DNA of 64,000 nt from a virus. Taxonomy: Duplodnaviria; Heunggongvirae; Uroviricota; Caudoviricetes. The stretch lies in IMG/VR virus record IMGVR_UViG_2529292852_000001, positions 32,714 through 96,713 of that record; one strand, given 5' to 3'. The notes below the pieces were generated by a model. The model was not told where the DNA came from, did no database searches, and saw nothing but the letters and a program-made list of their open reading frames with translations. The position numbers and the translations under genes were made by a program. Positions within the stretch are counted from its first letter, which is position 1, and every line of letters begins with the position of its first letter. This document shows, one piece after another, positions 16,328 to 41,900 of this stretch.

Positions 16328-17704
16328 CTAAATATTTTCCATTTTCGTTTCTAGCATTCCATTTACATGATATAAGCTAACAATGTTTTTAACTGTGCTA
16401 GATTTACCACTTTGAAGAATAACGCTTTTCCCTCTACTAATAACACTTTTAACTCTTTCAATTCTGTTAGTTTTGGTATTTAGCACAACATCATGTGGTC
16501 TTAATTGGTAGTGATTTCGTCTAATCGAAACACGCCCCTTTTTAACTTTTTCTTTTCTAAATTGTCTTAAATTGGTGTAATTAAGCTCTCTTGAACGTCT
16601 AGTTCTACCTGAACTTAACTCTTTACCAGCTTTTTGCTTACCATCACGGCTATCAATATATTTAGCGTCATAAAATAATTGCAACACTCGGTTATTATTC
16701 CTTAACTTTTGTCTTGAATAAATATTATTTGTTCTAAAAGTTGTATCAGTCCCACCAGCGATCACAAAAGCGTCATTTAAATGTGATTTTTCAATCTCAT
16801 ACTTTTGTCTTAAGTTAGCGGTTAGATAACCTTGGGTTGTCGTATATTCATCAAAATAATCACTTAATCTTGCTGCTAAAATACTCATAAAGTAAGCACC
16901 ACGATAATCAAGCATCTTTTGTCGATTTTCTCTCAACTTAGCTAAGATACCGTTATTATGGTTAGCTTGATTATGATTAATATCTGACAGTAAAACTAAA
17001 TTATCTGGCTGATTAGATCCACCATCTTTTCTTTGAACTAAGTGATGGACTCTTAATTGACTAGCTGGATATTGTTTACCATCTAAAGCATCACGATAAT
17101 TATCTCTAGCTAGGAGATAATCTTTAATCGTCTTAAAACCATACATTTTGCCTTTTTGATATTGCCACCCTTTAATGTTTGGGTTTAATAATTTTTGATT
17201 GTCGAATGGTGTAACTTCAACGACTAAATTAGTAATTGGCAAAAACGTATATAAGCGTTTGATTTCTTTAATTGTAAAATCTAATCTATGTTGAATACTA
17301 GGAGCTAACCAACCGTCTTTGTGTCTGCGATTATCAAATCTAGCCTTACGGTATCTTAAACGATTTCTTCTAGTTCGTCTTGATTCACGTCTACTAGTAA
17401 TCCTATCTTTTTCTGATTTTCTTAGACTTTCTGACACATAATATTCACGGTTGTTACCCACAACTGATAAACCTAAGTGGAAACCAGCGTCTACTCCTAG
17501 TGTTAAATCTTGAGTATTTGTAGTAACAGGTCTAACAAATTGGATAGTATTTCTACTATTTCCGTACCATTTTGCTTGACCTGTTTTTAACCAACGGCGA
17601 ACCATACCTAATCTTGAAGTTGGCATGAGTGGTGTACCGTTGGAGTCTACTACATAAATATAATCAACTTTTTTAATTTTTGACATCATGTCAACTCCTT
17701 TCAA
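16328..17704 (-). CDS. iscB: IscB RNA-guided nuclease (PLMP domain, RuvC-I, Arg-rich bridge helix, HNH, RuvC-III). True start probably MMSKIKK at ~17689
   Basis: PLMP motif (NGTPLMPTSR), RuvC-I GVDAGFHLGLSVV, bridge RRESRRTRRNRLRYRKARFDNRR, HNH LRVHHLVQRKDGGSNQPDNLVLLSDINHNQ. The RBS AAAGGAG lies inside the annotated 5' end. Confidence 0.8.
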   Translation of the reverse strand: MKGVDMMSKIKKVDYIYVVDSNGTPLMPTSRLGMVRRWLKTGQAKWYGNSRNTIQFVRPVTTNTQDLTLGVDAGFHLGLSVVGNNREYYVSESLRKSEKDRITSRRESRRTRRNRLRYRKARFDNRRHKDGWLAPSIQHRLDFTIKEIKRLYTFLPITNLVVEVTPFDNQKLLNPNIKGWQYQKGKMYGFKTIKDYLLARDNYRDALDGKQYPASQLRVHHLVQRKDGGSNQPDNLVLLSDINHNQANHNNGILAKLRENRQKMLDYRGAYFMSILAARLSDYFDEYTTTQGYLTANLRQKYEIEKSHLNDAFVIAGGTDTTFRTNNIYSRQKLRNNNRVLQLFYDAKYIDSRDGKQKAGKELSSGRTRRSRELNYTNLRQFRKEKVKKGRVSIRRNHYQLRPHDVVLNTKTNRIERVKSVISRGKSVILQSGKSSTVKNIVSLYHVNGMLETKMENI

Positions 17705-17949
17705 TCATAATTCGCACCTAACATAAAGTTGGTACGTGTGTACCCTTCGCCAATGTTATAGGTTGGTTTAATGTTAATTACACTAAGCCTGAACTCAGCT
17801 TTGTTTAATAATCAACCGTAGTGTTTGAAACTAGGGTGGCATTCCAAAGTACCTATTTATTCAACCCTAACGTAGTTATTTAAAACTTAGGCTAATCAAC
17901 CAGCTTGTATTTCTACAAGCCACCTACCTTAGTCGGCGGTTCTGTTGAC
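17705..17949 (-). ncRNA. Putative IscB omega-RNA scaffold (upstream of iscB, guide expected at the LE junction)
   Basis: ~240 nt immediately 5' of iscB, near-identical to 36947-37194 in copy 2. IscB omega-RNAs are known to be encoded at this position. Confidence 0.5.
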
Positions 17950-25638: not shown

Positions 25639-25640
25639 TT

Positions 25641-25945
25641 TGTCCCATGCACGCATAGATATCATCCAGATAACAATATTGTATCATTTATGGCTCCAGT
25701 CTGTCCCATGCACGCATAGATAGCGGTCTGTCCCATGTACACATGGGTAGTACAATAACGATTTCTCAACTGCAATGGCTCTTAGAGTCTATCCCATGTA
25801 CGCATGGGTAGCACTGCCTAATTCTTCTAGTTCTTCTTCATTTTTTAGTCTATCCCATGTACGCATGGGTAGTACCGAATAACTTTAACTGGAAGATCCG
25901 CATCTGTAGTCTATCCCATCGTACTAGGGTTTTGAGAACTCCTAA
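25641..25945. repeat. Six imperfect ~22-27-bp direct repeats with an internal CCCATG..CATGGG palindrome (centromere-like parS/iteron array)
   Basis: TGTCCCATGCACGCATAGATA (x2) and GTCTATCCCATGTACGCATGGGTAG (x3, plus one degenerate). Spacings are 61, 26, 59, 71 and 60 bp. Confidence 0.5.
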
Positions 25946-26074
25946 TTTTTTAGGGTTGTCAAAATTTCATTAGATACACCGTTGCCTTTGTATCAGAAAA
26001 ATCTGAAATAAAGGTCTTACATGGTAATTACCAAATGCTTTAGAGTCCGCAACAGACAAACGGACTACCTATTT

Positions 26075-27328
26075 CTAGGCTAATTGTTCTAATCCTTTGT
26101 CTAGGATATTCTTTGCTGCGTTTATATCACGTATGTGGTAAGTGTTGCATACAGGACAAGTCCAACTCCTATCTTTTAGCGTTAGTTTATCAGTATCTTT
26201 TGTTCCCATAACATGCCCACATTTATTACATGTTTGTGTAGTATTTTTAGGGTTTATGGTAACAAAAGTTTTACCATATAATTCAGCTTTGTATTCTAAC
26301 TTCTGTAGGAATATTCTCCAACCCACATCAGAAATTGACATAGCTAAAGCGTGATTTTTCAACAAATTCTTACTTCTTAGATTTTCAGCCACAACCAAAT
26401 CGTGGTTCTTGATAAGTGTTATTGACATCTCGTCTAAGAATTTATTACGCTGATTACGCACTCTATTCATGAGTTTTGATACCACCATACGTTGTTTTTG
26501 ATAATTTTTGCTATCACGTAAAGAACGTCCCTCTTTCTTGGCTCTGACTTGTCTACGTGATAACTTGCGTTGTGCTTTGGCTAACCTACCCTTGATTGTT
26601 CTATAAAATCTTGGGTTAGCTACAACATTGCCTTCACTTGTTGTTAAGAAGTTATCTGTGTTTAAGTCAATTCCAACTTGAGAGTTAGTTTTAGACAGTT
26701 CCTTAACAAATGGTGTATTAGAACCTAACTGCATAGAAACGTAATAGATACCAAAAGCATTCTTAGAAATAGTAGTTGTACCAATTCTAATATCGTCTTT
26801 ATTATCTAGTAGCTTTCTATAAGAACCACTTACACGAATAATGCCCAGCTTAGGAATATTGATATGTTTATTGTCTACAAATCTAATTGAGCCAGTCCAC
26901 ATATTAACTGGTTTCTTGTTTTTATAAGTCCCACTTGTCTGATACTTTTCTTCATAAGTCTTCTTATGAAAGTTTGGTGTACCAGCATTGTGTACTTTTC
27001 TAAACATGTTCCACGCAGCTTTATATGAACGCATTGCCATATTGCGACAATAACTATCAATATAAGGGTGGTTCATATAGTAATAATGGTTTGCTAAATG
27101 GTTTTGAGCTTTCTTGCGTTGTTCTAATTCTTTAATACGATCTTGAACCATATCAATAGGTAACTTAACTTGTTTAAGTTGATATAACTCTTTATCAATT
27201 GCAACCATAGCGTTGTATACAGCCCTAGATACATCACTGTTCATCTTGATGATTTGTTTTTGCTTTGTACTAGGGTGAATACACATTTTTAAACCATAGT
27301 GATATTTCAACTCACTCATCGTTTTCAT
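26075..27328 (-). CDS. tnpB: TnpB (IS605 OrfB-type RNA-guided nuclease), 417 aa
   Basis: RuvC-I GIDLNTDN, RuvC-II LVVAENL, zinc finger CNKCG...CPVCN, RuvC-III RDINAAKNI. Confidence 0.85.
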   Translation of the reverse strand: MKTMSELKYHYGLKMCIHPSTKQKQIIKMNSDVSRAVYNAMVAIDKELYQLKQVKLPIDMVQDRIKELEQRKKAQNHLANHYYYMNHPYIDSYCRNMAMRSYKAAWNMFRKVHNAGTPNFHKKTYEEKYQTSGTYKNKKPVNMWTGSIRFVDNKHINIPKLGIIRVSGSYRKLLDNKDDIRIGTTTISKNAFGIYYVSMQLGSNTPFVKELSKTNSQVGIDLNTDNFLTTSEGNVVANPRFYRTIKGRLAKAQRKLSRRQVRAKKEGRSLRDSKNYQKQRMVVSKLMNRVRNQRNKFLDEMSITLIKNHDLVVAENLRSKNLLKNHALAMSISDVGWRIFLQKLEYKAELYGKTFVTINPKNTTQTCNKCGHVMGTKDTDKLTLKDRSWTCPVCNTYHIRDINAAKNILDKGLEQLA

Positions 27329-27420
27329 TTTCTCACCTTCTTTCTAATTAATTTTTTGAGGCTTGTTTCAACCTCTATTAGCACTAACGGAATCGAACCG
27401 CCATAAAACAACCATGTGTA

Positions 27421-27589
27421 GTCTTATACCTATGTCATTTAACTTAGGTTCAGAACAAAGTATGACTTAAAAGTCCCTTATTTAAAGTCTTGCACCTATG
27501 CCATTTAACCTAGGTTCAGAACGTGGCGGTAGCGAAAGCAACTCATACCAAGGTCTTGCACCTACATCAATTCAACTTAGGTTCAGAAC
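27421..27589 (-). CRISPR. CRISPR-like mini-array A: 3 repeats (36-37 nt), 2 spacers (30 nt)
   Basis: Plus-strand repeat GTCTT(A/G)CACCTATG(T/C)CATTTAAC(C/T)TAGGTTCAGAAC at 27421, 27487 and 27553. Unique spacers. Confidence 0.6.
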
Positions 27590-27730
27590 CGTTGTTTTCT
27601 AACCTATATTTAATTGTGACATAAGCTTCTTGGGAACTCTCCATACTTGCGATGTACTATTGTTAGATTAACTAACTAACACCGTAGAGGTTAGAGATAT
27701 TAACCAAGCTGAAAAGAACAAGCGCCCTCC
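27590..27730 (-). ncRNA. Conserved scaffold A (~140 nt) with an anti-repeat at the array-proximal end. tracrRNA/omega-RNA-like
   Basis: One of 8-9 homologous copies. The array-proximal 30 nt (minus strand CTTATGTCACAATTAAATATAGGTTAGAA) is complementary to the repeat. Confidence 0.5.
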
Positions 27731-27783
27731 TACTAGCACTAGTGGAATCGAACCACTATTGTAGCAACCATGCGTGCCAAATT
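27731..27783 (-). ncRNA. tRNA-like mini-element (acceptor-like stem + T-arm mimic, no anticodon arm)
   Basis: Minus strand GGCACGCATGGTTGC...AGTGGTTCGATTCCACTAGTGCT. T-loop GTTCGATTC. Confidence 0.45.
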
Positions 27784-27831
27784 GTATATTATTTTCAAAC
27801 AAAAACATTAGTGAAACACACGTCAAACTCT

Positions 27832-28057: not shown

Positions 28058-28197
28058 CGTTGTTTTCTAACCTATATTTAATTGTGACATAAGTTTCTTG
28101 GGAACTCTCCATACTTGCGATGTTTTACCGTTAGATTAACCAACAACACCGTAGAGGTTAGAGATATTAACCAAGCTGTCGAGAACAAGCGTCCTCC
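28058..28197 (-). ncRNA. Conserved scaffold B with anti-repeat
   Basis: Homologous to scaffold A (CGTTGTTTTCTAACCTATATTTAATTGTGACATAAG...GAGAACAAGCGTCCTCC). Confidence 0.5.
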
Positions 28198-28862
28198 AAA
28201 TTTTATTATCTAACGCTCAAATAACACTTCAAACATGAGCTTTCACTCTGCTTATAATGTGCTACCGTTTATTATGTGAACGTCCCACAAGGTCTGAGCA
28301 ATAAGGAGCTACCCTATTACTTCCTCGTGCTATTTAACGACGTGGCTACTATGATAAGTACCAACTTTCAGGCGATCATTCAGAACTTTGTTTTTATTTT
28401 AATCTTAATTGTTGTATGTGGATTTTAAGTCCAAGACAACAATTACTGTCTGTAATCTTGATGCCATTGCCCTACTTGTTCTTGTTTCCGTTGTTATAGC
28501 TCAGTTTCCTAAGCGTCAAGGCAAACACTGTCTTTGGTTATTCCCATCGCATCACTTAGCTACCACACTAAGCTGCCAATGGGTTATTCCCACACCGTGA
28601 GCGTCTATTTTATCCAGTGCCAACGGTCAACAAAGCACTAACGTCACACACTTCCACATACGTACCAAACGTCCTAGCTTTTACCAGGTTTGATAGTTAT
28701 TGCTAACAATCTCTCGACTTATCTAAGCTATCACTCAGACTACATCTACTACGAATTACAGGTACATATCCGACAAGATTTGACTAAAACCCTTATGCAA
28801 TCGGTTATGCTTGAAGCGTTATTTGAACGGTAAATAATTTCTGATTCTGGATCCTCTATATA
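28198..28862. other. Unassigned ~665-nt noncoding segment, higher GC than its surroundings. Possible structured RNA
   Basis: No convincing ORF (the only listed one, 63 aa, looks spurious). Sits between array C and scaffold B. Partial resemblance to 40965-41221. Confidence 0.2.
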
Positions 28863-29228
28863 GCCTTACACCTATGTCATTTAACATAGGTTCAGAACAG
28901 AAAACATTCTTTTCTTTTATAGAATATTGTCTTCAACCTATGTCATTTAGCCTAGGTTCAGAACTAAAAACGATGAAAGCGATAGATGATTTTGGTCTTA
29001 TACCTATGTCATTTAACTTAGATTCAGAACCCCACCACAGTTGCAAAACAAACTCAAATAGTCTTACACCTATGCCATTTTACTTAGGCTCAGAACCAAT
29101 CTCGCTATTATCCAAGAATGTAATTAGTCTTACACCTATGTCATTTAACCTAGGTTCAGAACCATCATGAAAGGAGGTGAGATTGTGGCAGAGTCTTGCA
29201 CCTATGCCATTTAACTTAGGTTCAGAAC
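28863..29228 (-). CRISPR. CRISPR-like mini-array C: 6 repeats (36 nt), 5 spacers (29-30 nt)
   Basis: Repeats at 28863, 28929, 28995, 29061, 29127 and 29193. On the minus strand it lies directly downstream of the scaffold, which lies directly downstream of the tnpB stop. Confidence 0.65.
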
Positions 29229-29369
29229 CGTTGTTTTCTAACCTATATTTAATTGTGACATAAGCTTCTTGGAAACTCTTCGGACTTGCAATATCTCTCT
29301 GTTAGATTAACTAACTGATACTGTAGAGGTTAAAGATATTTACCAAGCTGTCGAGAACAAGCGTCCTCC
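29229..29369 (-). ncRNA. Conserved scaffold C with anti-repeat, in the position expected for a TnpB omega/reRNA (immediately 3' of tnpB)
   Basis: Homologous to the other scaffolds. Begins (minus) GGAGGACGCTTGTTCTCGACAGCTTGG right after the tRNA-like element that overlaps the tnpB stop. Confidence 0.5.
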
Positions 29370-29370
29370 T

Positions 29371-29436
29371 ATAACGATGGCAGGAATCGAACCTGCATCT
29401 GTTACCTTGCCTTACCGTTAGGCTACATCGCTACTT
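29371..29436 (-). ncRNA. tRNA-like element with acceptor stem, D-arm (GCCTAACGGTAAGGC) and T-arm but no anticodon arm. Overlaps the tnpB stop codon
   Basis: Minus strand AGCGATGTAGCCTAACGGTAAGGCAAGGTAACAGATGCAGGTTCGATTCCTGCCATCGTT. Only 13 nt lie between the D- and T-arms. Confidence 0.5.
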
Positions 29437-30873
29437 GTTTCTTCTTTAGGTGTGGTTTTATTTTTAGCTCCACACTTAGTACATGTCCACTTTTCATCTT
29501 GCGTGATAACCGTACGTTCATGCCCACATTTCTTGCAAGTATCATTCATCTTATCTAGTAAATCCAAGCCTTCATCTAAGATGTTTTTAGCTGCGTTTAT
29601 GTCTTGATCATGGTGAGAATTACATACAGGACAAGTCCAATTACGATCCTTTAATTTAAGGTTGTGCTTAATGTAACCACAAGTATGGCAACGCTTTGAA
29701 GTTGGTGACCAACGATCAATAAACACAATCTTTTTATCAGCCCAGTCCATCATGTAAGTGAGCGTATCTCTAATTTCACGAAAGTTTGATCTAGTGATTG
29801 CTCTAGCACGGTATTTGTTCTTTTCCATGTCTGAAACAGCTAGGTCTTCCATAACGATTACATCATATTCATTAGCAAGCTTTGAACATGTCTTTTTAAT
29901 ATAGTCTTTTTTCAAGTTCTTAATACGTAAGTGTAACTTAGCAATTTTCTTTTTGTTCTTTTGGTAATTGCTACGTTCAGCTAAAGTAGGAACATGCTTT
30001 GGAATTAAGGCTTTTTTATTATCTTCTTCAATAATTGCGACCTCTTTTTTCCATTGTTCATACTTACGACTACGCTTTATGTTTTCTTTTTCAATCTTTT
30101 GTTCTAATTTTCTGATTTTGTCATATGGTAATTGATACCTTGTGCCATCTTGTAAAACAATATGACTATTACCTGTTACGTTTAAGTCAATGCCAGCTGC
30201 TAAACCAGTTCTAGGACGATCTACAGTATGTTCAGCTTGTTCAAACACAATTGACGCATACCAAGTATCGCTAGATTCATGCTTAATTGTTACTTTATAC
30301 AAACGACCATCACTAGGATAATGGTTAGCAATTTCAATTAAGCCTAACTTAAACTTCTTTAATTTACCTACTCTAAGGTAATTTCCATCTTCGCTTATAC
30401 CACAAACTTGAGCGCCTGAAGTATAGCTTCCGTTATTGTCAACGTCCATCGTTGTTTTAAATCTAGGAATACCAAAGTGTCTAGGGTTTTTCAAATGGTT
30501 GCTCATCGCTGTTTTTAAAGTACGTAAAGTGTAACTATACATACTAGTGTCAGCATCTTTCAAAGTCCAACCACTTTTAAATACAGTTTCATCAGCATCG
30601 TAAATTGCCTTAGTTGATAATTCACGTACACCTTTGAACAAATCACGTTGTTCTTCCCATGACATTCTTTCAATACGTTTGTAAACTTCTTTGCTTTGTT
30701 TATTTTTAGGTAAAGCTTGAACTTCATCTAATTCACTAACTGGCTTATAAACTTCAGCTAGTAACGCATTCCACATTTTGATGTTAGCAAACATATTAAA
30801 CGTTAAGTATGCTTGTTGTTCTTTAGTAGGATAAATTCTAATTCTACGACTTTCTAAAACTTTTTCTTCCATT
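29418..30873 (-). CDS. tnpB: TnpB paralog (~485 aa) with an extra C-terminal zinc ribbon. The annotated 551-aa ORF is probably over-extended at the 5' end
   Basis: RuvC-I GIDLNVTGN, RuvC-II VIVMEDL, ZnF CHTCG...CPVCN, RuvC-III QDINAAKNI, then a second ribbon CKKCG...CTKCG. The first 67 codons of the listed ORF are homologous to the noncoding scaffold. The internal Met (MEEKVLESRR) has RBS AAGGAG 9 nt upstream. Confidence 0.75.
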
Positions 30874-30879
30874 TTTTCC

Positions 30880-31073
30880 AACTCCTTTTTTGAGTTAACA
30901 TGTAATTTACGCATAGTCTTTTGGCTGACTACACCTAACGCTAACCCTTCCACAATGGACGTCTTTATTTGTGCCATCAGCACTTTTTGGGAACTCTTCA
31001 ACAAAGAAATGCAATTAGCAACACTTTGTTTGCGAAGATGTTTACCAAACTGTGAAGAGCAAGCACCCTCCAA
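30880..31073 (-). ncRNA. Decayed scaffold copy (5' leader of tnpB) without an adjoining repeat
   Basis: Minus strand GGAGGGTGCTTGCTCTTCACAGTTTGGTAAACATCTT...GAAGAGTTCCCAAAAAGTGCTGATGGCACAAATAAAG aligns with the scaffold 5' and 3' blocks. Confidence 0.45.
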
Positions 31074-31074
31074 T

Positions 31075-31138
31075 AACGATGGTAGGAATCGAACCTACGT
31101 CGCCTCGCTTTGCTCTACCATTGAGCTACATCGTTGTT
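31075..31138 (-). ncRNA. tRNA-like element (7-bp acceptor, canonical D-arm TAGCTCAATGGTAGAGCA, T-arm, no anticodon arm), immediately upstream of the tnpB leader
   Basis: Minus strand AACGATGTAGCTCAATGGTAGAGCAAAGCGAGGCGACGTAGGTTCGATTCCTACCATCGTTA. Confidence 0.5.
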
Positions 31139-31165
31139 TTGACTTTAATTAAGCCCATGATTTCA

Positions 31166-31399
31166 TTCTTACACCTATGTCAATTCAACTAGGTTCAGAA
31201 CATTTGATTGCACTATCGAACTCATCACGTCGTCTTACACCTATGTCAATTCAACTAGGTTCAGAACTATCCTAAGAGTAATTGGAGTCCACTCGAAGTC
31301 TTACACCTATGTCAATTTAACTAGGTTCAGAACGGATCTCCCAAGCGAAGGAATCGAAGGCACGTCTTGCGCCTATGTCAATTTAACTAGGCTCAGAAC
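31166..31399 (-). CRISPR. CRISPR-like mini-array D: 4 repeats (variant GTCTTACACCTATGTCAATTCAACTAGGTTCAGAAC), 3 spacers of 30 nt
   Basis: Repeats at 31166 (5' end degenerate), 31232, 31298 and 31364. Confidence 0.6.
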
Positions 31400-31539: not shown

Positions 31540-31592
31540 TATTAGCATTAGCGGAGTCGAACCACTATTAAAGTAACCGTACATGCCAACCT
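31540..31592 (-). ncRNA. tRNA-like mini-element
   Basis: TATTAGCATTAGCGGAGTCGAACCACTATTAAAGTAACCGTACATGCCAACC (plus strand). Confidence 0.4.
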
Positions 31593-31669
31593 ACAATAAA
31601 CATAAAGGAGATGCAGGCTAAATTCCTGCGATAGACACAATGTACGCAGGGGTTAAGAAGAAACCCCCT

Positions 31670-31720
31670 ATTAGCACTGGTAGAATCGAACCACCATTAA
31701 GCAACCATACGTGCCAACCT
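31670..31720 (-). ncRNA. tRNA-like mini-element preceded by a GGGG..CCCC hairpin
   Basis: TTAGCACTGGTAGAATCGAACCACCATTAAGCAACCATACGTGCCAACC. Confidence 0.4.
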
Positions 31721-31774
31721 TGAGTAAATCATTCAGTACAATCACACCGCCGCCACGAACCCTAGATGGCGGCA

Positions 31775-31945
31775 GTCTTACACCTATGTCAATTCAACTA
31801 GGTTCAGAACCCTAACCTATATTTAATTGTGACACAAGTTTCTTGGGAACTCTTCTTACTTACAATGTTGCTAACTAAGTAATCTAAGTTGCAACACTGT
31901 AGAGGCTAAAAATATTAACCAAGCTGTCGAGAACAAGCGTCCTCC
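31775..31945 (-). ncRNA. Solo repeat (31775-31810) fused to a scaffold copy (31811-31945)
   Basis: One perfect D-type repeat followed directly by CCTAACCTATATTTAATTGTGACACAAG...GCGTCCTCC. Confidence 0.5.
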
Positions 31946-31996
31946 TATTAGCACTAGTGGAATCGAACCACTACAAGATAACCGTATGTACTAGCC
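31946..31996 (-). ncRNA. tRNA-like mini-element
   Basis: TATTAGCACTAGTGGAATCGAACCACTACAAGATAACCGTATGTACTAGCC. Confidence 0.4.
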
Positions 31997-32067
31997 TCAT
32001 AAGTAACTTTATAGAAAAGGAGTTTGTTACATAACCACTCATACATGGGAGTATTATTACACTCCCT

Positions 32068-32123
32068 ATTAGCATAGCTAGAATCGAACTAACTTTTATT
32101 CCAAAATGCTTATATTTGCTAAG
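32068..32123 (-). ncRNA. tRNA-like mini-element (variant type, as at 40806-40860) preceded by a GGGAGT..ACTCCC hairpin
   Basis: ATTAGCATAGCTAGAATCGAACTAACTTTTATTCCAAAATGCTT. Confidence 0.35.
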
Positions 32124-32132
32124 TTATGATAA

Positions 32133-32432
32133 GTCTTACACCTATGTCAATTCAACTAGGCTCAGAACCTCGTCTAAGGCTTTTTAATTGTTCTTCTGGT
32201 CTTACACCTATGTCATTTAACCTAGGTTCAGAACTGAAAGGAGATGATTAAATTGAGCAATATAGTCTTACACCTATGTCAATTCAACTAGGTTCAGAAC
32301 CTACTTTGAAATCACTACATCATAACCACGGTCTTACACCTATGTCAATTCAACTAGGTTCAGAACCCTTGACTAATAGTGATAAACGTATCAGATGTCT
32401 TACACCTATGTCAATTCAACTAGGTTCAGAAC
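32133..32432 (-). CRISPR. CRISPR-like mini-array E: 5 repeats (36 nt), 4 spacers (30 nt)
   Basis: Repeats at 32133, 32199, 32265, 32331 and 32397. Confidence 0.65.
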
Positions 32433-32575: not shown

Positions 32576-32640
32576 AATAGCGATGGCAGGAGTCGAACCC
32601 ACTTGATTGCTCTACCGTTGAGCTACACCGCTACACCAAA
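32576..32640 (-). ncRNA. tRNA-like element with a canonical D-arm (TAGCTCAACGGTAGAGCA) and T-arm, no anticodon arm
   Basis: Minus strand GTAGCGGTGTAGCTCAACGGTAGAGCAATCAAGTGGGTTCGACTCCTGCCATCGCTATT. Confidence 0.45.
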
Positions 32641-35569: not shown

Positions 35570-36946
35570 CTAAATATTTTCCATTTTCTTTTCCAACATT
35601 CCATTTACATGATATAAGCTAATTACATTTTTAACTGTGCCATATTTACCGTTTTGGAAAACAATGCCCTTTCCTCTACTATTAACTCCTTTGACTCTTT
35701 CAATCCTGTTAGTTCTGGTATTTAACACAACATCATGTGGTCTTAATTGATAATGACCTCTTCTAATCGAAACACGACCCTTTTTAACTTTTTCTTTTCT
35801 AAATTGTCTTAAATTGTCATAATTAAGCTCTTGGGATCGTCTAGTTCTCCCTGAACTTAACTCTTTACCAGCTTTTTGTTTACCATCGCGACAATCAATA
35901 TACTTAGCGTCATAAAACAACTGTAATATACGATTATTATTCCTTAACTTTTGTCTCGAATAAACATTGTTTGTTCTAAGGGTTGTATCAGTTCCACCAG
36001 CAATCACAAAAGCGTCATTTAAGTGAGATTTTTCAATCTTATACTTTTGTCTTAGGTTAGCGGTTAGATAACCTTGAGTTGTCGTATATTCATCAAAATA
36101 ATTGCTTAATCTTGTTGCTAAAATGCTCATAAAATAAGCTCCACGATAATCAATCGTCTTTTGCCGATTTTGTCTTAATTTAGCTAAGACACCATTATTG
36201 TGATTAGCTTGATTATGGTTAATATCTGACAATAAAACTAAGTTATCTGGCTGATTAGAACCACCATCTTTTCGCTGCACTAAGTGATGAACTCTTAATT
36301 GACTAGCTGGATATTGTTTACCATCTAAAGCATCACGATAGTTATCTCTAGCTAGTAGATAATCCTTAATCGTCTTAAAACCATACATCTTACCTTTTTG
36401 ATACTGCCAGGCTTTAATATTTGGATTAGCTAGTTTTTGATTATCAAATGGTGTAACTTCAACGACTAAATTAGTAATGGGTAAAAACGTATATAAACGT
36501 TTGATTTCTTTAATTGTAAAATCTAATCTGTGTTGAATACTAGGAGCTAACCAGCCGTCTTTACGTCTACGATTATCAAATCTAGCTTGACGGTATCTTA
36601 AATGTCCTCTTCGAGTACGTCTTAATTCTCTTCGACTAGTAATTCGATCTTTTTCTGACTTTCTTAAGCTTTCTGACGCATAATATTCACGTTGGTTTCC
36701 AACAACAGATAATCCTAAGTGAAAACCAGCATCTACTCCTAAAGTTAAATTTTGTGTATTTGTAGTAACAGGTCTGACAAATTGGATAGTCTTACGACTA
36801 TTTCCGAACCATCTTGCTTGACCTGTTTTTAACCAACGACGCACCATGCCTAATCTTGAAGTTGGCATGAGTGGTGTGCCGTTGGAGTCTACTACATAGA
36901 TATAATTAAATTTTTTGATTTCTGACATCATGCCAACTCCTTTCAA
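35570..36946 (-). CDS. iscB: IscB RNA-guided nuclease, copy 2
   Basis: Same motifs as copy 1 (PLMP, RuvC, HNH), with a handful of substitutions. Confidence 0.8.
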   Translation of the reverse strand: MKGVGMMSEIKKFNYIYVVDSNGTPLMPTSRLGMVRRWLKTGQARWFGNSRKTIQFVRPVTTNTQNLTLGVDAGFHLGLSVVGNQREYYASESLRKSEKDRITSRRELRRTRRGHLRYRQARFDNRRRKDGWLAPSIQHRLDFTIKEIKRLYTFLPITNLVVEVTPFDNQKLANPNIKAWQYQKGKMYGFKTIKDYLLARDNYRDALDGKQYPASQLRVHHLVQRKDGGSNQPDNLVLLSDINHNQANHNNGVLAKLRQNRQKTIDYRGAYFMSILATRLSNYFDEYTTTQGYLTANLRQKYKIEKSHLNDAFVIAGGTDTTLRTNNVYSRQKLRNNNRILQLFYDAKYIDCRDGKQKAGKELSSGRTRRSQELNYDNLRQFRKEKVKKGRVSIRRGHYQLRPHDVVLNTRTNRIERVKGVNSRGKGIVFQNGKYGTVKNVISLYHVNGMLEKKMENI

Positions 36947-37194
36947 TAATTGTAATTCGCACCTAACATAAAGTTGGTACGTGTGTACCCTTCGCCAATG
37001 TTATAGGTTGGTTTAATGTTAATTACACTGAGCCTGAACTCAACTCTGTTTAATAATTAACCGTAGAGTCTAAGACTAGGGTGGCATCTTAGAGTACCTA
37101 TCTATTCAACCCTAACGTAGTTACTTAAAACTTAGGCTAATCAACCAGCTTGCATTTCTACAAGCCACCTACTTTAGTCGGTGGTTCTGTTGAC
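36947..37194 (-). ncRNA. Putative IscB omega-RNA scaffold, copy 2
   Basis: Conserved with 17705-17949. Confidence 0.5.
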
Positions 37195-39719: not shown

Positions 39720-39786
39720 AAATAGCGATGGCAGGAGTCGAACCTGTATCTCATGCCTTGCTCTACCGTTGAGCTACATCGCTACG
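39720..39786 (-). ncRNA. tRNA-like element with a canonical D-arm and T-arm, no anticodon arm
   Basis: Minus strand GCGATGTAGCTCAACGGTAGAGCAAGGCATGAGATACAGGTTCGACTCCTGCCATCGCT. Confidence 0.45.
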
Positions 39787-39869
39787 CTTACACTTTTTAT
39801 TTTAGGGAGGAAAAAGTGTAGCCCCATACACATTCCGATTAGTTGGCTCGCCCTTGTTTTTCAACAAGG

Positions 39870-40860
39870 ACAATTGGCACTGGTAGGATCGAACTACCAT
39901 TAAGCAACCGTGCGTGCCAACCGTGAATTAATGTTATGATTTATTTAGGGCTTATTTTTGCCCTATTGGCAAACAAGGAGTCGAACCTTGACGTCACAAC
40001 CGTGTTACCAACTGTATTTCCAAAGGTGAACTAACGAAATACAAGGAACTGTCTTGCAAACACCCACTCTTGTCAGATGTACAGTCTTAGTTTGTTTAAC
40101 AGTTCGTTTTGACTTTTTTCATGGCCCTGTACAGGAGGCAAAGCCCAGCACCAAAAACAACATAAGGTAGGTAGTTAGGATTAACCTTAACCTATTGGCA
40201 CTAGCAGAGTCGAACCGCTATGAAAGCAACCGTGCGTGCCAACTTATTGAGAGAAAAAACTTTAAAGGAAAGATATTTTTGTTGTCCCACTAGGGTTATT
40301 TTCGCCTTCGTTTTACCAAAGGCAATTAGCACCAGTGGAGTCGAACCACTGTAAAAGCAACCGTACGTGCCAACCAAATCATAAATATTAAATCAAGGAG
40401 TTATGTTAGTTAGAGTAATTTTTTTATTACTCTAAAGAGAAAAAGTTTTGAGTTTGTAGCTTAATGCTACAATTGGCACTAACAGAATCGAACTGTTACA
40501 AGACAACCATGCGTGCCAGCCGATAAGTAACTTTTAAAAAAGGAGTAATATACAACCATCTTAGGGTTTATTCAAGCCCTATTGGTGTTAGCGGAATCGA
40601 ACCGATATACAGCAACCATGCACACCAACCAATATTTTAAGAGTTTATATAATAAGGCATTTAAGCCTAAATAAGAGGAAATAGTTTTAGGGTTGTTACA
40701 CCCTATTGGTAGCCAAGGAATCGAACCTTGATACAACCACTCTACCAACCTATAAGTAATAGTTTAAGTGCAAGTGTGAATGCCACTGTGAAGCTTGTCA
40801 GTGGCAATAAGCATAGCTAGAGTCGAACTAGCTTTTATTCCAAAATGCTTGTTAGATAAA
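39870..40860 (-). repeat. Tandem array of 8 tRNA-like mini-elements (~48 nt each: 5-bp acceptor-like stem, 3-bp mini D-hairpin with a YGGT loop, T-arm with a GTTCGAYTC loop), spaced 60-120 nt apart, each followed on the minus strand by an AGGGTT..AACCCT hairpin
   Basis: Units at ~39873, 39962, 40193, 40323, 40468, 40573, 40697 and 40806. Stems covary while loops are conserved. Confidence 0.55.
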
Positions 40861-40870
40861 CCTGTGATAT

Positions 40871-40964
40871 GTCTTATCTTATGTTTGTTTTAGCTAAGTT
40901 CAGAACATAACTCTCTACACAGTATTCTGTCTTATACTTACGTCATTTTAACTAGGTTCAAAAT
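40871..40964 (-). CRISPR. Two degenerate repeats with a 22-nt spacer (array remnant)
   Basis: GTCTTATCTTATGTTTGTTTTAGCTAAGTTCAGAAC and GTCTTATACTTACGTCATTTTAACTAGGTTCAAAAT. Confidence 0.35.
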
Positions 40965-41221
40965 GTCAAGAAATATATATATCCTATGTCAACTGCCCCA
41001 GTCTAAAGACATGGAGCTTGTAACTCACGACCTTACGGTCAGTGGTAATAACGCAACTTCGTTGCTCCCACACTATACATGGCTACATCATTGGGTGGTT
41101 GACAACACCCACTTAACTAACACGTTTACGCATTAGTTGTTAATTCAAATTTAGGTTGTTCTTGTCCACTAATATACTGAGTTCCAAGTAATTGGATATT
41201 CATTGATATGGTGGTCTTTTA
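40965..41221. other. Unassigned ~260-nt noncoding segment, relatively GC-rich. Possible structured RNA
   Basis: No ORF. Lies between a scaffold and the repeat remnant. Weak similarity to part of 28198-28862. Confidence 0.2.
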
Positions 41222-41377
41222 CCTATAATAATTCAATTAGGATCAGAACCTATATTTAATTGTGACACAAGCTTCTTGGGAACTTTCCATGCTTGCGATG
41301 TTTTACCGTTAGATTAACCAACGTTACACCGTAGAGGCTAGAAATATTTACCAAGCTGTCAAGAACAAGCGTCCTCC
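41222..41377 (-). ncRNA. Degenerate solo repeat + scaffold copy
   Basis: ...AATTAGGATCAGAAC then CTATATTTAATTGTGACACAAGCTTCTTGGGAACT...GTCAAGAACAAGCGTCCTCC. Confidence 0.45.
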
Positions 41378-41900
41378 AATTAGCACTAACGGAATTGAAC
41401 CGTTATTACAGCAACCATGCGTGCCAACTCAATAATTACTATAGAAAGGTTTTACTATGGCAAAACACTAGCATTACCATCTTTTAGGGTTTATCCAACC
41501 CTATTGGCACTAGCGGAGTCGAACCGCTATGAAAGTAACCGTACGTGCCAGCCGTAAGTCGAATCGAATATATAAAGGAGTAAAGAGATGCGAGTATTCG
41601 CAATCTTTTAGGGTCTGTTTCAACCCTATTGGCAGCCAAGGACTTGAACCTTGATGCAACCATTCTGCCAACCAATTTAATTAATTCAATAAAATAAAGG
41701 AGAATAGGGTCTATGGCAACCCTATTGGCACTGGTAGAATCGAACCACCATAAAAGCAACCATGCGTGCCACACCCAGTTAGTAAGTAACATATAATAAA
41801 AGGAGCGATGCAAACAATGTTTGCAGCCTAGAGCTAAGCTTAACCTAGCTCTAATTAGCAGGTAGGGAATCGAACCCTAGCTTAAGCAACCATGCCTGCT
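41378..41900 (-). repeat. Tandem array of 5 more tRNA-like mini-elements with preceding AGGGTT..AACCCT hairpins
   Basis: Units at ~41385, 41498, 41617, 41716 and 41846 (e.g. GGCACTAGCGGAGTCGAACCGCTATGAAAGTAACCGTACGTGCCAGCC). Confidence 0.55.

Follow-up and report, generated by a model that had tools for sequence, protein, structure and literature searches.

A tracrRNA-like scaffold copy stranded in the untranslated leader of a TnpB-like nuclease gene on a Ligilactobacillus salivarius-type megaplasmid

Introduction

The minus strand of the 64-kb stretch of DNA analysed here (hereafter the window) carries a program-made open reading frame of 551 aa (29418-31073) for a TnpB-like nuclease, and its TTG start at 31073 lies 2 bases from the 5′ end, at 31071, of a copy of the RNA scaffold that elsewhere in the locus stands directly before short CRISPR-like arrays. 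This raises the question of where the nuclease begins, and of what a guide-RNA scaffold that is followed by a reading frame rather than by repeats might be or do. An earlier note on this DNA, made from its letters, had proposed that the long frame is read-through of a noncoding leader and that the true start is an internal methionine, a proposal that every test run here supported.

Taken together, our analysis makes it likely that the gene has an untranslated leader and starts at ATG 30872, that this leader contains a collapsed guide module, that the transcript is cleaved at tRNA-like elements, and that the module has some role in cis, although this last part is weakly favoured.

The nuclease starts at an internal ATG

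It is strongly supported that the 201 nt from TTG 31073 to ATG 30872 are an untranslated leader, and that the nuclease starts at that ATG, 67 codons later, as a protein of 484 aa. The two features concerned are as follows.

29418..30872, minus strand: true coding sequence of the TnpB-like nuclease, 484 aa, starting MEEKVLESRR (Pfam, NCBIfam, homologue P0001)
30873..31073, minus strand: spurious 67-codon N-terminal extension of the 551-aa frame (codon score, no Shine-Dalgarno sequence, frame broken in orthologs)

The competing possibility is that the 551-aa frame is real, starting at TTG 31073 with a scaffold-derived, strain-specific N-terminal extension, and the open frame in the window speaks for it. 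The signals for initiation, however, are found at the internal site. The AAGGAG that had been noted nine bases before the ATG is exactly there, at 30887-30882 with the ATG at 30872-30870, and this Shine-Dalgarno (SD) sequence and its spacing are kept in all orthologs. By contrast, the TTG comes directly after a tRNA-like element, at the 3′ side of its acceptor stem, and no SD is present in the 25 nt 5′ of it, which are the T arm and acceptor strand of that element. The extension also has poor codon statistics: with codon log-odds trained on the long ORFs of the window and evaluated in 67-codon windows, a comparison that the earlier note had suggested, it scores 0.07 per codon against 0.54 ± 0.16 for the coding sequence, below 99.5% of 184 ORF windows.

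Protein comparisons give the same start. The 417-aa TnpB paralogue in the window aligns from the internal methionine on, as had been claimed, with its residue 17 corresponding to residue 80 of the 551-aa frame in BLASTP; the Pfam HTH_OrfB_IS605 match runs from residue 72 of the long form, and the NCBIfam guided_TnpB match from residue 10 of the 484-aa form. The 22 closest homologues (48–97% identity) are 440–509 aa long, except for one among them that is a 315-aa fragment. The 14 of them that were aligned all begin close to M68, within a few residues of it; the longest N-terminus among these aligned proteins adds about 11 residues that are unrelated to the extension. P0001, the nearest homologue cluster, has 248 member sequences, 97% identity, and a length of exactly 484 aa, and the 64–73%-identical relatives are 440–492 aa, while PGAP gives 484 aa for the ortholog on L. 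salivarius plasmid NZ_CP123973, in agreement with metagenomic gene calls.

Homologs that conserve the 67 N-terminal residues, which the earlier note had named as the finding that would speak against an internal start, were looked for, and the outcome was the opposite. The extension residues have no protein family match, none of 288 database homologues covers residues 1–67 of the long frame, and stops or frame-shifting indels break the extension frame in all six orthologous leaders (L001, L091, L092, L093, L094, and L097), with TAG in place of the extension's TTG in L097. We therefore regard a genuine 551-aa protein as extremely improbable, a reading already close to refuted; the open long frame is an accident of this allele, which happens to be without stops there. 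As a gene-model correction from 551 to 484 aa this is ordinary, although it matters for the cloning and classification of a compact effector.

The leader contains a copy of the system's scaffold

The leader divides into the following parts.

30958..31071, minus strand: leader copy of the tracr-like scaffold, 114 nt (covariance model R1, 61 bits)
31071-31033, minus strand: its 5′ block with the P1 hairpin
31032-31000, minus strand: its own short P4 hairpin
30999-30984, minus strand: its 3′ block, closing P3 and P2
30983-30958, minus strand: its degenerate anti-repeat
30873..30957, minus strand: variable 5′ UTR linker of 85 nt, with a local hairpin (GUAGUC...GACUAU) and the SD AAGGAG at 30887-30882

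The leader was aligned by MAFFT with eight scaffolds of the window and three of a related plasmid. It matches these array-associated scaffolds in its 5′ block (31071-31033) and its 3′ block (30999-30963), and a shorter hairpin stands in place of the middle one. A covariance model (R1), with a P1–P4 consensus structure and derived from 19 distinct bona fide scaffolds (from the window, L001, L091, and L092) with the leader excluded, gives the window leader 61.0 bits (E = 6e-14 for the 192 kb searched, 1e-16 locally). The same model gives 136–156 bits to array-linked scaffolds, 82–87 bits to scaffolds beside the 64–69%-identical effectors of metagenomic relatives, and 59.8 and 52.5 bits to the orthologous leader copies of L001 and L091, respectively. 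It is certain, then, that the leader from 31071 to 30958 is homologous to the scaffold of this system. The match of both blocks on the minus strand that had been described from the letters is thus borne out, but its extent is not: of the roughly 200 nt (31073-30880) that had been taken as a scaffold copy, 114 nt belong to it, and 30957-30873 gives no reliable alignment. A possible remnant of the 3′ end of the repeat, TTAGGTGTAGTCAG, in 30957-30920 was also considered, and was rejected as too short and too variable among orthologs to claim.

A locus of scaffold and array modules

The minus strand around tnpB is a dense run of RNA modules. A scaffold of about 130 nt with the 5′ end GGAGGACGCTTGTTCT occurs nine times on this strand in the 64-kb window, starting at 41377, 39719, 32575, 31945, 31539, 31071, 29369, 28197, and 27730. 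Eight of the nine are followed by at least one 36-nt repeat, six of these eight by arrays with 30-nt spacers, and the 5′ neighbour of each scaffold is a tRNA-like element or, for the copy at 28197, a ROOL RNA. The copy at 31071 is the sole exception, being followed downstream by the tnpB reading frame, without repeats. The elements around the gene are listed below.

31166..31399, minus strand: upstream mini array of four repeats
31074..31135, minus strand: tRNA-like element with acceptor, D and T arms and discriminator, without CCA, ending 2 nt before the leader scaffold (Rfam tRNA, 52 bits)
29372..29432, minus strand: second tRNA-like element, leading into a functional scaffold (Rfam tRNA, 49 bits; anticodon arm replaced by 7 nt)
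29240..29369, minus strand: bona fide tracr-like scaffold with 3′ anti-repeat, used as reference (model R1, 152 bits)
28863..29228, minus strand: mini CRISPR array 3′ of tnpB, with six 36-nt repeats and 30-nt spacers
28218-28828, minus strand: ROOL RNA (Rfam RF03087)
28069-28197, minus strand: scaffold downstream of the ROOL RNA
32578-32632 and 39723-39783, minus strand: further tRNA-like elements

More elements containing a T arm are seen at about 27370-27800, 31540-32111, and 39850-41800. In the region 31136-31201 (minus strand), exactly 30 nt, the length of one spacer, separate the end of the final repeat of the upstream array from the 5′ end of the tRNA-like element 31074..31135, and an RNase P cut at the latter would leave a full-length terminal crRNA. 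The corresponding gaps of other arrays are about 21 and about 34 nt, and a 30-nt gap is not a rule.

The core fold is kept and the anti-repeat is lost

The consensus structure of the scaffold consists of a P1 hairpin, P2 (CUUGG:CCAAG), P3, and a variable P4. Covariation supports this structure well: among array-linked scaffolds 97.6% of the cells are paired and 15 of 27 pairs are changed on both sides, which none of 500 shuffles reaches; slid controls are 42–54% paired. In the window leader all 27 modelled pairs are canonical, 17 of them unchanged, five with one-sided, wobble-compatible changes, and five with two-sided changes, although the counts for P4 come from a model-fitted alignment and carry less weight. 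The clear compensatory changes, from A-U to G-C in P1 and from C-G to U-A in P2, lie in unambiguously aligned blocks. The P1 variant of the leader also occurs in the scaffold of the distant relative L088, which suggests an old scaffold lineage.

The anti-repeat has fared differently from the core. In array-linked scaffolds its duplex with the repeat extends along the whole repeat length at −21 kcal/mol (shuffled, −10 ± 2.8), whereas for the leader versions the energy is −10 to −13 kcal/mol, which equals the mean of shuffled controls (−12 to −13), and the 64-kb window contains no repeat complementary to the altered anti-repeat of the leader. Since its anti-repeat pairs with no repeat and no array follows, the leader copy cannot be a working tracrRNA for these arrays. 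The description of the copy as decayed, given in the earlier note, therefore holds for the anti-repeat, which is dead, and for the array, which is missing, but not for the scaffold core. The leader copy is a collapsed guide module in which the P1–P4 core fold is kept, or, put in terms of descent, a tracrRNA-like paralogue stranded in the 5′ UTR of tnpB.

An intact core fold might also be put to use in another way, with the leader copy acting as a tracrRNA in trans, or as a re-fused, omega-RNA-like single guide whose fixed guide would follow a half-repeat remnant and serve regulation instead of defence. The candidate TTAGGTGTAGTCAG remnant after the degenerate anti-repeat, together with the intact core, would fit such a guide, and in Sigma-TnpB lineages a tracrRNA has been re-fused with a half repeat (PMC10691335). 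However, repeat pairing is no better than shuffled, the window holds neither a cognate repeat nor a second copy of the putative guide, and no 3′ end or terminator precedes the ORF. Moreover, the putative half repeat and guide form the least conserved part of the leader, which is partly deleted in L092–L094. We consider a guide function of this kind very unlikely.

tRNA-like elements, ROOL, and the 5′ end of the mRNA

The tRNA-like elements keep the acceptor, D and T arms and the discriminator, have their anticodon arm replaced by 1–8 nt, lack CCA, and end 2–3 nt 5′ of the scaffolds. In the element in front of the leader (31074..31135) the Rfam alignment shows 8 nt in place of the model's 17-nt anticodon arm, and the element 29372..29432 overlaps the last five codons and the stop codon of the 484-aa coding sequence. 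Both elements, which have no anticodon arm, fall short of a complete cloverleaf, and ARAGORN found no genuine tRNA in the 64-kb window. Minimal tRNA-like elements of this kind are adequate substrates for RNase P and RNase Z and are useless for decoding.

We hypothesize that transcription of the minus strand yields long precursors spanning about 32650 to 26000, which RNase P and RNase Z would cut at the CCA-less tRNA-like elements. Such cleavage would free the upstream pre-crRNA and give the tnpB mRNA a 5′ end near U31073, with the P1 hairpin of the scaffold foremost. With tRNA-like processing, the leader scaffold would probably become the 5′ end of that mRNA. A promoter and terminator scan performed at chance level (30 promoters found, 27 expected), with no credible candidate of either kind within the leader; its best promoter matches arise from TTGACA motifs inside the repeats. 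As no promoter stands out, the structure of the transcript is assumed.

In one module of the window ROOL occupies the place that tRNA-like elements hold in the others, and this arrangement recurs. In each of the six loci examined, among them relatives whose effectors are only 64–69% identical, a tracr-like scaffold begins 14–30 nt 3′ of ROOL on the same strand. Besides the window, these are the following (ROOL, then scaffold).

L001: 5300-5900, 5286
L091: 6914-7522, 7543
L092: 6914-7519, 7540
L083: 4743-5308, 5338
L085: 5072-5639, 5668

A CRISPR-like array follows ROOL and scaffold in the loci read downstream (window, L001, L091, L092, and L083). This pairing with scaffolds is a possible lead to the function of ROOL.

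Constraint, history, and a possible role in cis

Whether the retained fold still serves the gene was approached through the orthologs, with the following pairwise divergences.

Window and L001: third codon positions 19.2%; leader scaffold 5.3% (6 of 114; p = 1e-4); tRNA-like element 0/62; linker 32%
Window and L091: third codon positions 16.9%; leader scaffold 7.8% (p = 0.014); tRNA-like element 1/62; linker 33%
L001 and L091: third codon positions 6.8%; leader scaffold 8.7%; tRNA-like element 1/62; linker 16%

The linker differs from that of the orthologs by indels as well as substitutions. As the pair L001 and L091 shows no deficit of substitutions in the leader, mosaic recombination could explain the low leader divergence of the window, and the idea of uniform purifying selection on the leader was dropped for the same reason.

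We weakly favour a reading in which the surviving core still works in cis, by shielding the mRNA as a 5′ structure or by offering the effector a feedback site on its own message, and we place it ahead of the alternative that the copy is a pure relic, that is, a dead duplicate of a tracr module with a collapsed array that came to lie in the 5′ UTR by chance. Under the latter, which we consider a serious possibility, the intact stems would reflect past selection as a working tracr and too little time since. The loss of the anti-repeat fits a relic, as do the R1 scores of the leader copies, which at 52–61 bits have fallen below those of the scaffolds of 64–69%-identity relatives, and the leader divergence between L001 and L091, which is about the synonymous rate. 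A relic would further agree with L092–L094, in which the gene is intact and 97% identical, but the tRNA-like element, P1, and P4 are deleted, removing the 5′ half to two-thirds of the leader copy. Less easily reconciled with a relic is that none of the 27 pairs is broken despite changes in ten of them, and that, next to a linker diverging by 32%, the four leader-bearing alleles differ mostly in the apical loop of P4, with few stem changes, all wobble-compatible.

In favour of the cis reading, 5′-proximal structure is a known stabiliser against 5′-exonucleolytic decay in Firmicutes. Binding of the effector to its own leader is plausible because the part retained is the core that the effector presumably recognises, and such binding may act as feedback. 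A more specific version, in which the scaffold is kept as a mimic of the tracrRNA core, so that surplus effector would bind its own mRNA after release by RNase Z and throttle its translation or stability, appears doubtful to us. If true, it would be analogous to the autoregulation of ribosomal proteins by rRNA mimics, and would offer a simple, testable case of RNA-mimic autoregulation in a type V-like system.

With regard to history, it is reasonable to suppose that an upstream scaffold-plus-array module lost its repeats. In the deletion allele (about 4830-5000 in L092, and the equivalent regions of L093 and L094), a TTG is all that separates the last array repeat from the leader's 3′ block, which here occupies the position of a spacer; these three alleles also have a 19-nt deletion in the linker. 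The distant relatives L083 and L088 have no leader scaffold: in L083 the order is ROOL, scaffold, array, and gene, and in L088 a SIR2 gene lies immediately upstream of the nuclease gene and the scaffold lies downstream. Another distant relative, L085, scores like L083 with R1 and has the ROOL-to-scaffold order in common with it. It had been suggested that scaffold copies may occur without arrays and act as leaders; one array-less copy does lie in this leader, but L092–L094, L083, and L088 show that this is not a general rule.

The leader documents that guide-RNA modules of a TnpB-derived CRISPR-like system duplicate, lose their arrays, and become untranslated leaders, and that in this case the protein-facing core fold outlives the part that pairs with the repeat, which is modest new biology.

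The effector and its relation to known systems

The 484-aa protein has matches to Pfam HTH_OrfB_IS605, OrfB_IS605, and Cas12f1-like_TNB and to NCBIfam guided_TnpB, and the RuvC-motif residues D229, E342, and D424 are invariant in the family alignment. With HTH/WED, RuvC, and zinc-finger TNB domains and an intact D-E-D triad, it is a TnpB by domain content, and the nearest solved structures are ISDra2 TnpB (8bf8, E = 6e-28) and LaTranC (9jfo, E = 2.5e-15). The effector and its close relatives have an extra C-terminal CxxC...CxxC zinc-ribbon segment (29418-29560, minus strand) that the 417-aa paralogue and relative P0022 lack. A profile scan of genome contigs with the family alignment was dominated by the generic TnpB motif, with relatives of at most 36% identity and one short segment of 46%, and was uninformative on the leader; a protein scan of viral contigs found a single ortholog, L091.

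Judged by the ORFs screened and by the sequence 3′ of the gene, tnpB does not appear to reside in an IS200-IS605 transposon: no Y1 or serine transposase is present among the neighbouring ORFs screened, and the 3′ end of tnpB leads, instead of to a single guide, to a tRNA-like element with a tracr-like scaffold and an array behind it. The locus has the arrangement of a type V system: a RuvC effector adjoins a repeat-spacer array, a tracrRNA pairs with the repeat, and the ORFs screened nearby include no cas1 or cas2. With an effector compared by PDB and HMM similarity, tracr-like scaffolds, and short arrays, the system appears to correspond to the V-U/TranC-type grade (PMC10691335).

The array-linked scaffolds resemble the tracrRNAs of type V (and II) systems in that they are about 130 nt long and carry at the 3′ end an anti-repeat whose pairing spans all of the 36-nt repeat; each lies immediately 5′ of its array, in the same orientation, and follows a tRNA-like element or ROOL. 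The leader copy differs from a tracrRNA: its anti-repeat does not work, it lacks an array and a defined 3′ end, and it is fused to the effector mRNA.

Three natural systems invite comparison. Tracr-L is a natural single guide with which Cas9 represses its own operon, through a short guide segment directed to promoter DNA (bioRxiv 10.1101/2020.05.21.102756; PMC11417352). In both cases a variant scaffold RNA adjoins the effector gene and could feed back on its expression, but no guide or target was found for the leader copy in the window, and any feedback here would need to act through RNA binding in cis. The omega-RNA of TnpB, which is carved from the tnpB mRNA and contains the guide, overlaps the gene at its 3′ end (PMC10278001). 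Here, too, a scaffold RNA and the mRNA of a TnpB-family effector would share one transcript; unlike omega-RNA, the leader element lies at the 5′ end and is guideless, the working guides being supplied by CRISPR-like arrays. With TranC and V-U systems, which are intermediates between TnpB and Cas12 (PMC10691335; LaTranC structures 9jfo/9jfq), the locus shares a TnpB-sized effector (484 aa here), short arrays, an array 3′ of the gene, and, among the ORFs screened here, the lack of cas1 and cas2. The present locus differs from them in having several tracr-plus-array modules on one strand, punctuated by anticodon-less tRNA-like elements and ROOL.

Engineered polycistronic tRNA-gRNA arrays were reportedly described by Xie et al. 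in PNAS in 2015. As in those constructs, tRNA-shaped elements stand immediately 5′ of scaffolds, where they would allow release by RNase P and RNase Z, whereas the arrangement here is natural, its elements have no anticodon arms, and its processing is inferred. Our literature search, which was incomplete and is no proof of novelty, found no description of the L. salivarius system, of natural tRNA-like/tracrRNA fusions, or of ROOL beside CRISPR-like arrays.

Plasmid context and spacer targets

Wider interest may lie less in the leader than in the surrounding locus, with its tracr-plus-array modules punctuated by tRNA-like elements and ROOL, its location on an L. salivarius-type megaplasmid, and a spacer that matches plasmids. 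The window has RepA_N and ParA genes and resembles L. salivarius megaplasmids (88% DNA identity to NZ_CP123973 and NZ_CP007648). One ortholog of the effector lies on an IMG/VR contig, and a megablast of the locus against phages gave no match.

Of 20 spacers queried, one, CGTGGTTATGATGTAGTGATTTCAAAGTAG (32301-32330, minus strand), has a full match, 30 of 30 positions, to an intergenic site of at least eight small L. salivarius plasmids (6.9–37 kb). In the two loci read, the 5′ flank of the protospacer is TTTTTA or TTTTTT, and the PAM rests on these two related protospacers. Spacers compared with a phage collection gave only chance-level matches. The plasmid matches suggest that the system may target competing plasmids, with a T-rich TAM/PAM.

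The window holds further RNA-guided nucleases. The 417-aa TnpB paralogue (26075-27328) has its own non-coding region downstream and, after it, a different mini array (both within 25640-26074, minus strand) of palindromic repeats of about 25 nt, TACCCATGCGTACATGGGATAGAC, with spacers of about 33–37 nt, which ends in a terminator at 25633-25607; paralogue and array would together form a second TnpB-plus-array system of this plasmid, unrelated to the first. There are also, at 16328-17949 and 35570-37194 (both minus strand), two copies of a 458-aa IscB-like protein with an RRXRR domain, each with a HEARO/omega RNA immediately upstream of its gene (130–135 bits). With two TnpB-like and two IscB-like genes, the plasmid carries four RNA-guided nuclease genes of three kinds.
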